DNA of 64,000 nt from an uncultured Clostridia bacterium (GTDB lineage: Bacteria; Bacillota; Clostridia; Christensenellales; UBA1242): the NCBI GenBank assembly GCA_934747385.1, contig CAKVGK010000002.1:258436-322435 (forward strand), read 5' to 3'. The notes under the pieces were generated by a model. It worked only from the letters and a program-made list of their open reading frames with translations. It was not told the origin of the DNA and ran no database searches. Of this stretch, positions 4,140-62,262 are shown piece by piece. The first letter of the stretch is position 1. Every line of letters starts with the position of its first letter. The position numbers and the translations under genes are program-made.

Positions 4140-4214
4140 TGGCAGGGGAGACGCGATTCGAACACGCAACCAATGGTTTTGGAGACCACTACTCTACCGT
4201 TGAGCCACTCCCCT
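4140..4214 (-). tRNA. trnW: tRNA-Trp (anticodon CCA)
   Basis: Reverse complement reads AGGGGAGTGGCTCAACGG...GGTCTCCAAAACC...GTTCGAATC...CTCCCCTGCCA. Cloverleaf is present and CCA is encoded. Confidence 0.95.
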
Positions 4215-16001: not shown

Positions 16002-16076
16002 TGGAGCTGGTGAATGGAGTCGAACCATCAACCTGCTGATTACAAGTCAGCTGCTCTGCCATTGAGCCACACCAGC
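16002..16076 (-). tRNA. trnT: tRNA-Thr (anticodon TGT)
   Basis: Reverse complement GCTGGTGTGGCTCAATGG...CTTGTAA...GGTTCGACTCC...CACCAGCTCCA. Confidence 0.95.
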
Positions 16077-16108
16077 TTATTAAGTTGTTTGCAGATTTCC
16101 ACTTGGAG

Positions 16109-16193
16109 TGGTGGAAGGGGATGGATTCGAACCATCGAAGACGAAGTCGACGGATTTACAGTCCGTTGCATTTGGCCGCTCTGCAACCCTTCC
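16109..16193 (-). tRNA. trnY: tRNA-Tyr (anticodon GTA), long variable arm
   Basis: Reverse complement GGAAGGGTTGCAGAGCGG...ACTGTAAATC...GGTTCGAATCC...CCCTTCCACCA; 85 nt. Confidence 0.95.
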
Positions 16194-16217
16194 AGATACC
16201 CACTTGATAAACAAGTG

Positions 16218-16293
16218 TGGTGGCTCGAACCGGAATCGAACCAGTGACACAAGGATTTTCAGTCCTTTGCTCTACCGACTGAGCTATCGAGCC
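16218..16293 (-). tRNA. trnF: tRNA-Phe (anticodon GAA)
   Basis: Reverse complement GGCTCGATAGCTCAGTCGGTAGAGC...ACTGAAAATC...GGTTCGATTCC...GAGCCACCA. Confidence 0.95.
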
Positions 16294-16299
16294 TTAATT

Positions 16300-16376
16300 T
16301 GGCGACCCGGAAGGGGCTCGAACCCTCGACCTCCAGCGTGACAGGCTGGCGCTCTAACCAGCTGAGCTACCGGGCC
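16300..16376 (-). tRNA. trnD: tRNA-Asp (anticodon GTC)
   Basis: Reverse complement GGCCCGGTAGCTCAGCTGGTTAGAGC...CCTGTCACG...GGTTCGAGCCC...GGGTCGCCA. Confidence 0.95.
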
Positions 16377-16407
16377 AAATTAAAATTAAGATAATTGCCT
16401 TTAGGGC

Positions 16408-16484
16408 TGGTGGGCCTTCACGGACTTGAACCGCGGACCGACCGGTTATGAGCCGGTTGCTCTAACCAACTGAGCTAAAGGCCC
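16408..16484 (-). tRNA. tRNA with CAT anticodon (Met, or Ile2 read after lysidine modification)
   Basis: Reverse complement GGGCCTTTAGCTCAGTTGGTTAGAGC...GCTCATAACC...GGTTCAAGTCC...GGCCCACCA. From memory the body resembles Bacillus tRNA-Ile2, so the identity is ambiguous. Confidence 0.9.
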
Positions 16485-16542
16485 TTGTGTGTTGCATAAA
16501 CAACTAGCAAGGTTTAATCCGCATCTATCACAATGCAGATAA

Positions 16543-16617
16543 TGGTCGGGGTGAAGGGACTCGAACCCCCGGCCCCATGATCCCAAATCACGTGCGCTAC
16601 CACTGCGCTACACCCCG
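16543..16617 (-). tRNA. trnP: tRNA-Pro (anticodon TGG)
   Basis: Reverse complement CGGGGTGTAGCGCAGTGGTAGCGC...TTTGGGA...GGTTCGAGTCCC...CACCCCGACCA. Confidence 0.95.
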
Positions 16618-20185: not shown

Positions 20186-20261
20186 GCTGATGTAGCACAG
20201 TCGGTAGTGCAATTGATTCGTAATCAATAGGTCGCCGGTTCAAGTCCGGCCATCAGCTCCA
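20186..20261 (+). tRNA. trnT: tRNA-Thr (anticodon CGT)
   Basis: GCTGATGTAGCACAGTCGGTAGTGC...TTCGTAA...GGTTCAAGTCCGG...CATCAGCTCCA. Cloverleaf is present and CCA is encoded. Confidence 0.95.
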
Positions 20262-58593: not shown

Positions 58594-59485
58594 AAAGTTA
58601 TTAAAAAACTGGTTACCTAGTAGTGTTGCAAATTTAAACACACCACATATAGCACAAAACAAAAGCAAAAAAGTTAAATCTAAAAAACAAATTTTCAGCG
58701 ATGAACACAAAAAATACTTACTTCGTCAGTGCATTACAAAAACAACAATTATCATAACGCAAATATTAATTTTGACCATTTTACTTGTTGCTTGGGAACT
58801 GCTTACAAAATTTGAAATTTTAAGTTCTTTCTTCTTTTCAAGCCCAAGCAAAATTGCAAAAACCATTGGAGAACTGCACCGCTCTGGCGAATTGTGGCAC
58901 CACTCTTCAATCACATTAAAAGAAACATTGATTGGATTTGCAATTGCAACTGGGGTTGGTTTTGTTGTTGCTTTCATTTTGTGGTATAGCGACTTTTTGC
59001 GCCGTGTGCTTGAACCTTATTTAGTTGTGTTGAATAGTTTGCCAAAAATTGCACTTGGACCAATCATAATCATATGGTTTGGCGCTGGCAGCAAAGCAAT
59101 TGTGTTTATGTGTATTTTGATTGTTATTATTGTGACAATTATGAACATTTTAAACTCATTCACCAGTTGCGACAAACAGTTGATAGCACTCACTCGCTCG
59201 CTTGGTGCAAACAAAATGCAAATATTTTTAAAACTGGTTTTGCCGTCTTCGCTCAAAGACATTGTTTCAACACTCAAAATTAATGTTGGTTTGAGTTGGA
59301 TTGGCGCAATTATGGGCGAATATTTGGTTAGCAAGGCGGGGCTTGGCTATTTGCTGATTTATGGCGGTCAAGTGTTTAATTTGAACCTTGTTATGACCTC
59401 AACTATTATTCTCTGCGTGCTGGCCTCTGTTATGTATTTTGCAGTTGCAATATTTGAAAAATTAATGAACAAAATGTATCAATAA
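58577..59485 (+). CDS. ABC transporter permease (NitT/TauT family)
   Basis: BPD-type permease with the EAA-like loop LTRSLGANKMQIFLKLVLP. Start at ATG 58577 overlaps the ATPase end. Confidence 0.85.
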   Translation: MKNKSEKLLKNWLPSSVANLNTPHIAQNKSKKVKSKKQIFSDEHKKYLLRQCITKTTIIITQILILTILLVAWELLTKFEILSSFFFSSPSKIAKTIGELHRSGELWHHSSITLKETLIGFAIATGVGFVVAFILWYSDFLRRVLEPYLVVLNSLPKIALGPIIIIWFGAGSKAIVFMCILIVIIVTIMNILNSFTSCDKQLIALTRSLGANKMQIFLKLVLPSSLKDIVSTLKINVGLSWIGAIMGEYLVSKAGLGYLLIYGGQVFNLNLVMTSTIILCVLASVMYFAVAIFEKLMNKMYQ

Positions 59486-59551
59486 TTCAAATTTAAACAT
59501 TCAAATCAAAAAAAACAATAAAAAAATTAAGTTTGTTGAAAATACAAAAAA

Positions 59552-59577
59552 AATTCACCGATGTGGTGAATTTTTTT
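59552..59577. terminator. Bidirectional intrinsic terminator between the ABC permease and the PHP gene
   Basis: AATTCACC GATGT GGTGAATT hairpin with A8 on the left and T7 on the right. Confidence 0.8.
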
Positions 59578-59579
59578 AT

Positions 59580-60428
59580 CTAATCGCTTTTTAACAACGC
59601 TTTTAAAATTGTAACATTTTTAACACTAAAATTATAATTTTCAGCAGAAGTTTCTCCTATTTTAACGGCTTTATTCTTACCATGATAATCACTCCCCGCA
59701 GACAGTAGTAAATCATATTTGTCTGCAAGTTTTTTTATCATTTCTATTTCTTGATAGTTGTATAGTGAATAAAAACATTCTAAAGCATTTAAACCGCAAG
59801 TTTTTAAAAAGGCAATCCTTTTTTCAACAATTTCTATTGGAACTCTTTTTTCACCTACTCCACCTAGTGGATGAGCAAGACAAGTTACTATTTTTTCTTC
59901 TGACAACACTTTAACTACTTTGCTTGTAGAAATTTTTAAATCTGGCAGTTTGTGATACAGGTATTTGCTAATTGCTTCTTGAATTGTGTTTGCATAACCT
60001 AATTTAATTAAAATATTTGCTATCAAAACTTTATTTGGATTACTACTTGAAGAAATTTGTTTTAAAAATTTATCTGGAAGAATAATGTTAAAATCCTCTT
60101 TTAAATGTTGTAACCTATAATCTATTCGTTTTAATCTTGATTCGTGTATCTCTTTAATCAATTCATTTAGTGCTTTATTGTTCAAATCATACCCGTAAGC
60201 TAGCAAATGTACATTACCATCCTCATCTTTAGTCGAAAACTCTATTCCATTAATAAAAGTGATCTTTTTGTTTTTGAATTTTTTTACAACATTACAGCAG
60301 CCCTCAATAGTATCATGGTCTGTTAACGCCATAATTTTAATATGTTTTTTTATGTTTTTTCTTATAATTTTAATTGGATCCTCTGATCCGTCCGAATAAA
60401 TACTGTGTTGATGTAAATCTATTTCCAT
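59580..60428 (-). CDS. PHP-domain metal-dependent phosphoesterase (TrpH/YciV-like)
   Basis: MEIDLHQHSIYSDGS...ALTDHDT N-terminal PHP motifs, a later LAHP motif and a C-terminal GSDYHG. The ~280-aa size matches stand-alone TrpH-type PHP proteins. Confidence 0.8.
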   Translation of the reverse strand: MEIDLHQHSIYSDGSEDPIKIIRKNIKKHIKIMALTDHDTIEGCCNVVKKFKNKKITFINGIEFSTKDEDGNVHLLAYGYDLNNKALNELIKEIHESRLKRIDYRLQHLKEDFNIILPDKFLKQISSSSNPNKVLIANILIKLGYANTIQEAISKYLYHKLPDLKISTSKVVKVLSEEKIVTCLAHPLGGVGEKRVPIEIVEKRIAFLKTCGLNALECFYSLYNYQEIEMIKKLADKYDLLLSAGSDYHGKNKAVKIGETSAENYNFSVKNVTILKALLKSD

Positions 60429-60455
60429 ATCTTTCCCTTACCATTGAAATTAAGT

Positions 60456-60953
60456 CTAATCTTGATCCAAAGATAAATCATTGTTTTCCATTCTGTTTAA
60501 TTCTTGTTCAAATTTAGAAAAAATCGAATTTGGAATATCCAATTTAACAATAGCATCACATTCTTTTATTTGCTTGTTTTTTAATTTTTGATTTAAAGAT
60601 TTTAAATCCTCCAAATTATATTTTTCAAAAACTATAAAAGCATCTTTGTTAGCCATCACAAATTGAAAGAACTGAAAACTTGGTAAATTTTTCCAGTTTG
60701 AAACAATGTTGGTTTTTAGATGAATTTGATTAACCTTGTCATTATAATTTTTGATTTTGGATAAAACATTTTCACTCAATGAAAAATCAAAATTTTCCGA
60801 CCCAATATTTTTAACAAAATTCAAATCGCTTTCAATTGTATGCAAAAAATATTCAATAAACACATTAAATTCATTAACTTTTGCTTTAGTTAAAATTTTT
60901 CTTGCATTAGAATACAATCTTTCATTCTTCATCATAATTCCTTCCTTACTCAT
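60456..60953 (-). CDS. Hypothetical 165-aa protein, translationally coupled to the upstream kinase-like gene
   Basis: Its ATG overlaps the stop of the 421-aa ORF (ATGAGTAA). Rich in N, K, E and F with an acidic C-terminus. No motif recognised. Confidence 0.55.
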   Translation of the reverse strand: MSKEGIMMKNERLYSNARKILTKAKVNEFNVFIEYFLHTIESDLNFVKNIGSENFDFSLSENVLSKIKNYNDKVNQIHLKTNIVSNWKNLPSFQFFQFVMANKDAFIVFEKYNLEDLKSLNQKLKNKQIKECDAIVKLDIPNSIFSKFEQELNRMENNDLSLDQD

Positions 60954-62211
60954 TATTTATAATCGACTCAACCCCAACATTTGTATGTTGTTCAATTATA
61001 TGGGCCATATTATTAATTGCTTCAATATATTTTTCATCATTCAAAATTTGAGTGCAATTTTTACTTACCATTTTTTCATCAAATTTCATTCCTGGCACAC
61101 GATATGTAACAGCAGGACTCATTATTTTTGTTGACAATTGATTTGTTAGTTTCATTAACATTTCTTTATCTTTTTTAGACAAACCCTGGCTTTTCAAATA
61201 GTTAATGTCAACATCATTCTTTTTAAGTTGTTGCATCAACAAATTTGTCACTTGTTTTTTTATCTCTTTATTTATGCTCTGTCCTTGTTGGAAATATTCT
61301 AACAACTCCTCATTTGAATGAGCATGCAAAGAAAGTGAAATCATTTCTTGCGGTGGCATTCTCATTCCAAGACTTTCGGCAGAAAGGTCAGAATTATAAC
61401 TTTTGCAAATATCTAGCTTTTCTGCACAATTGTTAATTAAATAAAGATAAGTCATTAATGGTTTGTTACCACATTCTTCTAACGCTTCATATTCAACCAA
61501 CCTAGGAATTTCATTCTTTGCTATTTTCTTTAAACACCTATTGGAATTACGGACTTGACAAACTTTTATATCTGCATGAACCAAACTTACATTAATTCTG
61601 CTTGCTGTTTTTGAGTATTTATCAATTAATTTTTCCATTTTTTCGGGATTATCGCCTATTTTTTCTTGAATAAAATTAATTTTATTTTCTAATAATGCTC
61701 CAATCATATAGTTTTTCATCACAACACCAGACATAGCATGCATTAATGGATGATTTATATTTACATTATAATGCTTTGCCAATTGCTCTTTTATCCAATC
61801 TTGATCTGCATGATAGGCACCTTCATTCTGTTTTATAGATTCAATAATTGTAGACTTGCCTGCTGCTGGTGGACCTAAAACAAATGAAACAGATCCATCT
61901 TTTCCTATTGCTGGATTATCTAATTGTTCTTGAACGACTCTTGAAACTAAATTTTTGGCGAATTCTTCAAATTCTTTATTTATATTTGGAGAAGTATTAT
62001 TTGAATGCGAAAGAATAGCTTTGGCCAAGTGGTCAAATTCTTGTTCTTTTTTAGAATCTACAGAAGACAATATTTCTTTTGTTCTATTTTCAGCTTTAAC
62101 TTTAGTTTCGTTATAGAATTGCTCAATTTCTTCTATTGTTTTTGAGTTTGAAGAACTAGCAGCAATCCAACAATCAGGTGGTTGCAAACCATTCAAATAA
62201 TTATTATCCAA
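60946..62211 (-). CDS. Zeta-toxin-like / AAA_33-type P-loop kinase domain protein with long N- and C-terminal extensions
   Basis: Walker A LGPPAAGKSTII, followed by YHADQDWIKEQ, resembles the zeta/PezT arrangement (P-loop then an Asp-containing strand). TTG start 5 nt after GAGGTG. No other domain recognised. Confidence 0.6.
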   Translation of the reverse strand: MDNNYLNGLQPPDCWIAASSSNSKTIEEIEQFYNETKVKAENRTKEILSSVDSKKEQEFDHLAKAILSHSNNTSPNINKEFEEFAKNLVSRVVQEQLDNPAIGKDGSVSFVLGPPAAGKSTIIESIKQNEGAYHADQDWIKEQLAKHYNVNINHPLMHAMSGVVMKNYMIGALLENKINFIQEKIGDNPEKMEKLIDKYSKTASRINVSLVHADIKVCQVRNSNRCLKKIAKNEIPRLVEYEALEECGNKPLMTYLYLINNCAEKLDICKSYNSDLSAESLGMRMPPQEMISLSLHAHSNEELLEYFQQGQSINKEIKKQVTNLLMQQLKKNDVDINYLKSQGLSKKDKEMLMKLTNQLSTKIMSPAVTYRVPGMKFDEKMVSKNCTQILNDEKYIEAINNMAHIIEQHTNVGVESIINNE

Positions 62212-62262
62212 TTTGTCACCTCAACAAGGCATATTTTATTCGTCTTATAACAATGTATATAA

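Follow-up and report, generated by a model that had tools for sequence, protein, structure and literature searches.

The stretch of DNA analysed here, referred to as the window, comprises 64,000 nucleotides (nt) of an uncultured Clostridia bacterium (contig CAKVGK010000002.1, positions 258,436 to 322,435 of the forward strand), and its segment 59580-62211 was found to hold exactly three open reading frames (ORFs), all on the minus strand, which encode a zeta-like P-loop kinase, a small protein and a PHP phosphoesterase, are tightly packed and share one terminator. The features of this cassette, with the kind of evidence for each in brackets, are the following:

62211..60946, minus strand: zeta-like P-loop kinase, 421 amino acids (aa), non-canonical (Pfam Zeta_toxin, AlphaFold2 (AF2) model, Foldseek)
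60953..60456, minus strand: small orphan all-helical protein, 165-aa ORF (ORF scan; database searches without a match)
60428..59580, minus strand: TrpH/YciV-type stand-alone PHP phosphoesterase, 282 aa (Pfam PHP, NCBIfam, PDB sequence matches)
62217..62222, minus strand: GAGGTG ribosome-binding site, 5 nt upstream of the kinase TTG start (read from the sequence)
59577-59547, minus strand: intrinsic terminator, a 13-pair hairpin followed by a T-run, 3' of the PHP stop (terminator scan and sequence reading)
59486..62262, no strand: inserted segment, bounded by the ftsZ stop (62263) and by the convergent ABC permease gene, which ends at 59485 (missing in the closest relatives)

The kinase gene starts with a TTG codon, and within the small ORF an ATG at 60935 is preceded by a AAGGAAGG ribosome-binding site and coincides with the N-terminal ends of the homologs; this ATG is likely the true start, which would give a protein of 159 aa. 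The ftsZ stop and the kinase start are separated by 51 nt, in which terminator and promoter scans gave no terminator and no convincing promoter, and for this reason transcriptional read-through into the cassette from ftsAZ is likely; the promoter scan returned sites no more numerous than in shuffled sequence. The cassette converges on an ABC transporter operon and has a GC content of 0.28 as against 0.37 in the flanks. The only match of an Rfam scan was to the OrzO-P antitoxin RNA at 59547-59621 (minus strand), which overlaps the cassette terminator hairpin, is sub-threshold (31.9 bits for a gathering cutoff of 60; E 0.024) and was judged to be due to chance. The first-pass annotation, made from the letters alone, had described the segment as a compact cassette in which a zeta-like P-loop kinase and a TrpH-like PHP protein form an enzyme pair; both family assignments hold in Pfam, NCBIfam and PDB comparisons, and the link between the two genes is real, but the cassette consists of three genes, and the small protein had gone unmentioned.

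Loci of the same kinase clade were found 11 times, and a PHP gene was present in all of them (10 adjacent, one 3.5 kb off), in four gene orders and with flanking genes that differ in every context:

Window: kinase → small → PHP
L001, L004, L005: PHP ←, divergent from → small → kinase
L010, L011, L017, L271, L187, L188: small → kinase → PHP, often with 4-nt overlaps
L269: upstream ORF → kinase → leucine-rich repeat (LRR) gene ← PHP, 3.5 kb away

The kinase and PHP genes overlap by 4 nt in at least five loci, and no fourth neighbour gene recurs across the loci, only the kinase, small and PHP genes. Around distant zeta-like genes, on the other hand, neither a PHP nor a small gene was observed within 6 kb in any of 87 loci (0/79 viral, 0/8 other), and among the matches listed for more distant PHP genes (31–42% identity) no kinase lay nearby (0/80 loci); this PHP-side scan of GTDB genomes, which held only distant PHPs among the matches listed, serves as a control and not as a census. 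Fisher's exact test of the first nine loci against 0/87 gave p ~8e-13, a value that ignores phylogenetic relatedness. The kinase–PHP pairing is far beyond chance, and the significant co-occurrence of the two families, whose absence the first-pass annotation had named beforehand as evidence against its pair, was thus found. The small gene lies directly upstream of the kinase in 9/11 loci (downstream of it in the window, with another ORF at that place in L269), and the position directly upstream of a toxin is the classic antitoxin position.

By its FtsZ, the host belongs to a Candidatus Onthoplasma / Christensenellales-like lineage of gut Clostridia. The site in the window was compared with those of the five closest relatives (L026-L029 and L032; FtsZ 90–93% identical), in which the same ABC transporter lies 120–300 nt after ftsZ, is convergent and is followed by the same downstream genes as in the window, and which lack the cassette; across 80 ftsZ loci, not one of these three genes was detected. 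Because ftsZ adjoins the ABC transporter directly in these relatives, the whole cassette, including the PHP gene, is a ~2.7 kb low-GC insertion relative to them, and because they lack the cassette at this site, the PHP gene is not a resident housekeeping gene beside which a kinase had landed. Chance adjacency, in which an ordinary toxin-antitoxin pair of kinase and small protein would happen to lie beside a housekeeping TrpH gene, might account for the close PHP relatives that occur alone and for a PHP phylogeny partly discordant with that of the kinase; it is nevertheless very improbable, as the PHP gene accompanies the kinase in every locus through four gene orders and unrelated flanks, is missing from both sets of controls, repeatedly overlaps the kinase gene by 4 nt and, in the window, lies within the inserted segment. 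In one related metagenome-assembled genome, the module (L017) and ftsZ (L053) lie on different contigs. The alignment of the junctions with the empty sites displayed no target-site repeats and no clean boundaries, the search of the kinase by tblastn against INPHARED (phage) and PLSDB (plasmid) returned no match and hence no evidence of a phage or plasmid origin, and the flanks gave no match to mobile-element or known defence genes.

The kinase family is small. A word-seeded search found 6 kinase relatives among 5.8 billion clusters, a full hidden Markov model search found about 20 clade-like representatives above 150 bits among 1.8 billion proteins, and beyond the clade there extends a distant and large superfamily that is zeta-like and includes ~310-aa as well as giant multidomain proteins; a single-sequence kinase scan of GTDB genomes gave nothing, and a kinase scan of metagenomes gave distant fragments only. 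To date the system, itself rare, is known from uncultured gut Clostridia only. Alternatively, kinase and phosphoesterase might be dedicated to metabolism or salvage and process a cofactor or nucleotide intermediate, the small protein being a subunit and conflict playing no part; this would agree with the ordinary folds of both enzymes, the common occurrence of stand-alone PHPs of the same subfamily, the flanks devoid of matches to mobile-element or known defence genes, and the zeta domain carried by the plant NAD kinase NADKc (bioRxiv 10.1101/521658). This explanation is improbable, however, given the extremely patchy distribution, the absence of the module from the same locus of the closest relatives, its GC content below that of the surroundings, the fast evolution of the orphan partner and the futile cycle to which a kinase and a reversing phosphatase would amount.

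The ftsZ/ABC-transporter junction was also observed to be a variable spot in the lineage, with unrelated inserts of 1–5.6 kb in different relatives, such as a 474-aa polytopic membrane protein (L030:9155-10897); a GIY-YIG gene together with four proteins of secreted or membrane type and one of 521 aa (L036:9180-14825); and a 124-aa ORF with a 628-aa sigma-region-4/helix-hairpin-helix (HhH)-repeat-like protein (L060:9195-11930). The junction is variable in L048, L050, L054, L055, L058, L059 and L061 as well. The window cassette lies directly downstream of ftsA-ftsZ, and P0043 (44% identity; L186:1-5843), a stand-alone PHP from the subfamily of the window PHP, lies directly downstream of a murE-mraY-murD-ftsW cluster; the remaining module loci are not near division genes, and the proximity of PHP genes to cell-division genes in these two cases is probably a coincidence.

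The kinase matches the Pfam family Zeta_toxin (PF06414) with 36.1 bits (E 6e-9; gathering cutoff 22.3), a match shared by 40/40 family members scanned, 28 of which give a weaker AAA_33 match too; in the window kinase the AAA_33 match is below threshold. Three parts were distinguished, a kinase core (residues 107-273) between two helical regions, one N-terminal (1-98) and one C-terminal (300-420), and the AF2 model reached a mean predicted local distance difference test (pLDDT) of 93.3 and a predicted template modelling score (pTM) of 0.90. The top Foldseek matches of this model were zeta (3q8x/1gvn, E 3e-6), PezT (2p5t) and AvrRxo1 (4z8v; to 2e-4), followed by the C. thermocellum polynucleotide kinase 4gp6 at E 5e-4, a small margin below the zeta group. 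Against PDB sequences, the kinase family profile (A7) found zeta 1gvn best (E 7.7e-9), with PezT at 4.7e-4, and the narrow profile (A3) recovered P-loop segments only, so that the broader A7 was needed to reach zeta and PezT.

The residues expected of an active enzyme are conserved. The Walker A motif is GPPAAGKS (G113-S120), of which G113, G118 and K119 are invariant among 40 sequences, as are D138, K141 and the lid arginines R221, R225 and R237; D138 aligns with zeta Asp67, and the D-x-D-x-x-K motif with zeta DNDTFK, the catalytic aspartate being Asp67 in zeta and Asp66 in PezT (PMC5923241, PMC6362051). The zeta segment EGTGRT is aligned to (E/P)-K-I-G-D-E in the kinase family, represented in the window by K184-I185-G186-D187, with K184, I185 and G186 invariant; the GTXR motif is absent, with no Thr or Arg at that place. 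In zeta, GTXR (G117-T121) is required for the binding of UDP-N-acetylglucosamine (UDP-GlcNAc) (PMC6362051), and because K-I-G-D replaces it here, the substrate is probably not UDP-GlcNAc; from its conserved residues and model, the kinase is likely an active, non-canonical zeta-type enzyme. In the comparison with AvrRxo1, the P-loop Ser120 and D138 were observed in the kinase, and a sequence-level match to 4z8v was absent. The kinases have a pI of ~5 and a net charge of -15 to -23 in 8/9 loci, and such acidic proteins do not look like polynucleotide binders. No PHP or small-protein domains were fused to any of 150 deep kinase relatives, and PADLOC-DB v2 gave the kinase only marginal P-loop matches (E at least 0.0027) and gave the small protein and the PHP protein none.

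The two enzymes might instead act one after the other on RNA ends, and this is the main alternative: a 5'-OH polynucleotide kinase would feed a 5'-P-dependent, RNase AM-like 5'-3' exoribonuclease, clearing or processing 5'-OH RNA fragments, for example after a ribotoxin or a phage, with the small protein as an adaptor or regulator. The same logic of kinase-licensed decay operates in yeast with Grc3-Rat1 and Trl1-Xrn1, and D138 together with K141 (basic, at +3) resembles the catalytic Asp/Arg pair of polynucleotide kinases. Bacterial Pnkp, T4 Pnk and yeast Grc3-Rat1 have in common with the module a P-loop kinase core, an Asp general base and the pairing with a phosphoesterase. The core aligns in Foldseek with the bacterial Pnkp kinase 4gp6/4mde (template modelling score TMt 0.66–0.69, root-mean-square deviation (rmsd) 3.5–4 Å), the best PHROGs match is phrog_505 (polynucleotide kinase), AAA_33 is matched by those 28 of the 40 family members, and RNase AM, whose 5'-phosphate pocket is kept in the PHP protein, degrades 5'-P RNA (PMC9410882). 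On the other hand, Zeta_toxin outscores the PNK-type profiles (36 vs 22 bits, 40/40 vs 28/40 members), zeta, PezT and AvrRxo1 are placed above Pnk by Foldseek, zeta is the top sequence-profile match, and the kinases are strongly acidic. Moreover, no ligase or RNA-repair gene recurs in the neighbourhoods, and a small partner that diverges fast and co-evolves tightly is seen more typically in toxin-immunity pairs. The module also differs from Pnkp and T4 Pnk in having no ligase or Hen1 partner and a phosphoesterase of PHP type rather than of HAD or calcineurin type, and a role in an RNA-end pathway appears unlikely; if it held, kinase-licensed 5'-3' decay would have a counterpart in bacteria.

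Further features of the kinase family were also observed. A motif at the N-terminus of the clade, PPPD-x-Y-I-L-x-SSSN, is strongly conserved in alignment A3, lies outside the Zeta_toxin domain and reads QPPDCWIAASSSN in the window (62170-62195, kinase residues ~6-24). Distant relatives of the kinase core (22–39% identity) occur on 79 viral contigs (IMG/VR, L106-L184), none with a PHP or small gene nearby, mostly inside giant ORFs of ~1,000-3,700 aa, many of ~1,100 aa, which resemble phage polyvalent or injected proteins. A sister family of zeta-like proteins of ~300-320 aa (L020:4233-5406; L021:5334-6805) has small neighbouring ORFs of its own, one of 96 aa upstream in L021 and overlapping ORFs of 97 aa and 68 aa downstream, consistent with ordinary two-gene toxin-antitoxin pairs that lack a PHP component.

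The PHP protein matches Pfam PHP at E 1.3e-13, and its best NCBIfam models are RNase RNM (110.5 bits; cutoff 375) and 3',5'-nucleoside bisphosphate phosphatase (105.6 bits; cutoff 400); because these scores are far under the equivalog cutoffs, it is classed by sequence as a TrpH-like family member that is not an equivalog of the characterised enzymes. Among PDB sequences it matched 3e0f, 9etk, 2yb1 (Cv1693) and 7ug9 (RNase AM), with E values of 1e-11 to 1e-25. Cv1693 is reported by Cummings et al. 2014 to have phosphatase activity on adenosine 3',5'-bisphosphate (pAp). In an alignment of 11 module and stand-alone PHPs, the nine metal ligands H6, H8, D13, H38, E63, H74, H186, D247 and H249 are invariant, as are R98, R101 and K133, which align with R107, R110 and R141 of RNase AM, the residues that form the pocket for the 5'-phosphate of its substrate (PMC9410882); the base-stacking Phe161 of RNase AM is not kept, the window PHP having I153. 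The predicted trinuclear metal site and 5'-phosphate pocket are thus intact. Fold, length, nine ligands and pocket are shared with the TrpH/YciV enzymes RNase AM (7ug9), Cv1693 (2yb1), 3e0f and 9etk, of which RNase AM hydrolyses 5'-P RNA and the structure of Cv1693 is covered as well (PMC9410882). It is plausible that the protein is built to hold a 5'-phosphorylated nucleotide and to cut a 3' phosphoester, either a pAp-like monoester or the diester of 5'-P RNA. The characterised TrpH members are stand-alone housekeeping genes, whereas the module PHP is genetically tied to a kinase; the window PHP is as similar to stand-alone PHPs (44–46%) as to module PHPs, and in the PHP tree the two kinds are interleaved. 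Apart from its module PHP, L001 carries a second, distant PHP gene (L001:111-1049, plus strand; 312 aa, 25% identical to the window PHP), ~5.5 kb from the first and followed by two ORFs with no Pfam domains, and His_Phos_1 and HD phosphohydrolase genes also lie in the vicinity.

The earlier annotation had offered as its second option a nucleotide-signalling defence system, in which the kinase would sense infection or make a signal and the PHP protein would be the activated nuclease or phosphodiesterase effector. An accessory, rare module in a variable insertion site would suit such a system, and the NCBIfam TrlF-family model, in which a PHP domain is fused to an ATPase, gives a weak match (E 2.4e-6). 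The PHP protein, however, is a TrpH of one domain that lacks any sensor or ligand-binding domain, it differs from stand-alone PHPs no more than module PHPs differ among themselves, it is exchangeable, and PADLOC returned no match; the effector role is accordingly weak and quite improbable.

The small protein gave no match in Pfam, NCBIfam, PADLOC, PHROGs or PDB sequences, and its family comprises only 5 clusters among 5.8 billion, which makes it as rare as the kinase clade. Its AF2 model consists entirely of helices (pLDDT 85.5), and the fold found no match in PDB or BFVD. Two subgroups of the family are weakly related (hhalign E 2e-4), L188 and L269 have an ORF in the small-gene position with no demonstrable homology to the small protein, and the C-terminus of most copies is an acidic-aromatic tail, D-D-F-x-Φ-x-D-D, the tail of the window protein being acidic. 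Differential rates of evolution were observed for the three proteins, with a mean pairwise identity of 24% for the small protein, which evolves fastest, 34% among the kinases and 45% among the PHP proteins. The mirror-tree correlation of distances is r = 0.97 for kinase and small protein (0.90 without near-duplicates) and r = 0.87 for kinase and PHP (0.58 without near-duplicates), and the trees are discordant, as the window PHP is nearest to the PHPs of the L010 group (49–50%) and the window kinase to those of L001, L004 and L005 (37–38%). The tight co-divergence of small protein and kinase suggests a specific physical partnership, with the small protein as a candidate antitoxin; the loose co-divergence of kinase and PHP suggests that the PHP protein is a more generic, exchangeable partner, which would act on the product and not on the kinase protein.

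The proposal that the PHP protein serves as an antidote by chemistry, put forward with the original pair, is chemically plausible since the metal ligands and the 5'-phosphate pocket are kept, but the PHP protein is unlikely to be the sole antidote, because the small protein occupies the antitoxin position and co-diverges more tightly with the kinase. A strict two-component arrangement, in which the PHP protein alone is the antidote and the small protein regulates transcription or acts as a chaperone or activator, would be in line with the universal kinase–PHP linkage in the clade, with a small protein unlike the known zeta antitoxins and with the two ORFs of L188 and L269 that show no demonstrable homology. 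It is rendered improbable by the translational coupling of the small ORF to the kinase in nearly all loci, by the correlation of 0.90–0.97, which points to direct physical interaction, and by a PHP component that is partly exchangeable and in some loci separately transcribed or distant.

Taken together, the reading that we prefer, with a probability of roughly 40%, is that of a mobile tripartite toxin-antitoxin-like module, the small protein binding the kinase and the PHP protein hydrolysing what the kinase makes. The compact, coupled genes, their patchy and mobile distribution and the co-evolution of the small partner lend indirect support to a type II or type IV toxin-antitoxin function. With ATP as donor, the kinase would add a phosphate to a hydroxyl group of some metabolite of nucleotide type, which is probably other than UDP-GlcNAc; on the most economical assumption this group would be the ribose 3'-OH of a 5'-phosphorylated nucleotide, and the kinase product, similar to a nucleoside 3',5'-bisphosphate (pNp) or to 3'-NADP, would be harmful or growth-arresting. 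The small protein would be the cognate, specific binder that restrains the kinase, either a type II-like antitoxin or a regulator, and might dock by way of the conserved acidic-aromatic tail at its C-terminus. The Arg/Arg/Lys pocket of the PHP protein would bind the 5'-phosphate of the product and its trinuclear metal centre would hydrolyse the 3'-phosphoester, clearing leaky or residual product as a type IV-like antidote by chemistry. Such reversal would mark the toxin product as a 3'-phosphorylated nucleotide (pNp or 3'-NADP-like), because the PHP pocket fits 5'-phosphorylated nucleotides that are cut 3'. Whether the PHP protein, beside an orphan-fold binding antitoxin, removes the phosphate and is thereby the first enzymatic antidote for zeta/AvrRxo1 kinases is a more doubtful matter, on which we lean towards the negative. 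Two published systems bear on the scheme: AvrRxo1 makes 3'-NADP, so zeta-type kinases can yield 3'-phosphorylated adenine nucleotides (PMC5087710, PMC5491322), and the toxin FaRel of C. marina, a nucleotide pyrophosphokinase, is neutralised, as has been validated, by a generic product-degrading small alarmone hydrolase (SAH) together with a specific antitoxin (PMC7229694). PMC5087710 mentions no phosphatase acting on 3'-NADP.

Several points weigh against this proposal. The 11 loci are non-independent, all coming from related gut Clostridia, and the PHP gene is transcribed divergently in three of them and is 3.5 kb distant in one. Linkage, mobility, catalytic competence and the pattern of co-evolution are shown, toxicity, substrate, inhibition, product reversal and protein-protein interaction are predictions, and PADLOC has no model that matches the module. 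The kinase core superimposes on the polynucleotide kinase 4gp6 (TMt 0.69, rmsd 3.5 Å, Foldseek), and the best PHROGs label for the kinase is the polynucleotide kinase family phrog_505. The idea that the small protein is epsilon-, PezA- or Arc1-like is unsupported, there being no detectable similarity in sequence or fold. We know of no TrpH enzyme that accepts 3'-NADP. Stand-alone PHPs 44–46% identical to the window PHP occur, and the role of the PHP protein may simply be a housekeeping TrpH activity; in addition, RNase AM is inactive on NAD-capped RNA (PMC9410882).

Among the known systems, epsilon/zeta and PezAT (UDP-GlcNAc 3'-kinases; 1gvn, 3q8x, 2p5t) belong to the same superfamily, PF06414, and provide the best fold and profile matches; Walker A, the catalytic aspartate (Asp67 = D138) and the lid arginines are kept in the module kinase, and as in epsilon/zeta the gene directly upstream of the kinase codes for a small helical protein in most module loci. 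The module kinases differ in having K-I-G-D in place of GTXR and in their length of 400-600 aa, which includes additional helical regions at both termini, and the small partner (153-165 aa) is unrelated to epsilon and PezA in sequence and fold. The TrpH-type PHP is an obligate third component here and was found in no described zeta module. AvrRxo1-Arc1, a 3'-kinase of NAD and nicotinic acid adenine dinucleotide (NAAD) with a binding antitoxin/chaperone (4z8v), has a zeta-like fold with added helical elements, as in the module kinase, and gives the longest coherent Foldseek superposition on it (rmsd 6.2 Å over 266 columns). AvrRxo1 is a zeta-type kinase that does not act on UDP-GlcNAc and phosphorylates the 3'-OH of NAD/NAAD with Thr167 and Asp193 as catalytic residues, and its product is a 3'-phosphorylated adenosine nucleotide, which a TrpH 3'-phosphoesterase might hydrolyse; the module kinase, however, shares only 14–15% identity with it and no sequence-level match, and AvrRxo1 modules have no phosphoesterase partner. 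In the three-gene toxSAS FaRel operon of Cellulomonas marina, the toxin is flanked by an interchangeable hydrolase, a type IV antitoxin, and a specific binder, the same logic that is suggested here (PMC7229694), although a RelA-SpoT synthetase and SAH stand there in place of a zeta-like kinase and PHP, and the resemblance is one of functional analogy, not homology. No module of a zeta-type kinase and a TrpH/PHP protein is described in the searched literature, in agreement with the earlier statement that such an arrangement would be unusual for zeta modules, since no PHP-partnered zeta-family module was found there; the module is a zeta-type system that comprises, in addition, a partner enzyme and a new orphan protein.

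Toxins and effectors of the zeta kinase family are widespread, and for most of those that are non-canonical no substrate has been assigned; a PHP partner with well-understood chemistry, in the need for a 5'-phosphate and the 3' cut, points to a possible kinase product. If the PHP protein does reverse the kinase, the principle of antidote by chemistry, which is that of DarTG and has a precedent in toxSAS/SAH, would extend to the zeta superfamily, a tripartite architecture with a new orphan-fold partner would be added, and a new toxic-metabolite mechanism in bacteria would come to light; the rarity of the system and its restriction to uncultured gut Clostridia limit its immediate reach. Elsewhere in the window, six clustered tRNA genes (Thr, Tyr, Phe, Asp, Met, Pro) occupy 16002-16617 on the minus strand, with further genes for tRNA-Trp at 4140-4214 and tRNA-Thr at 20186-20261, and these look like ordinary chromosomal content.

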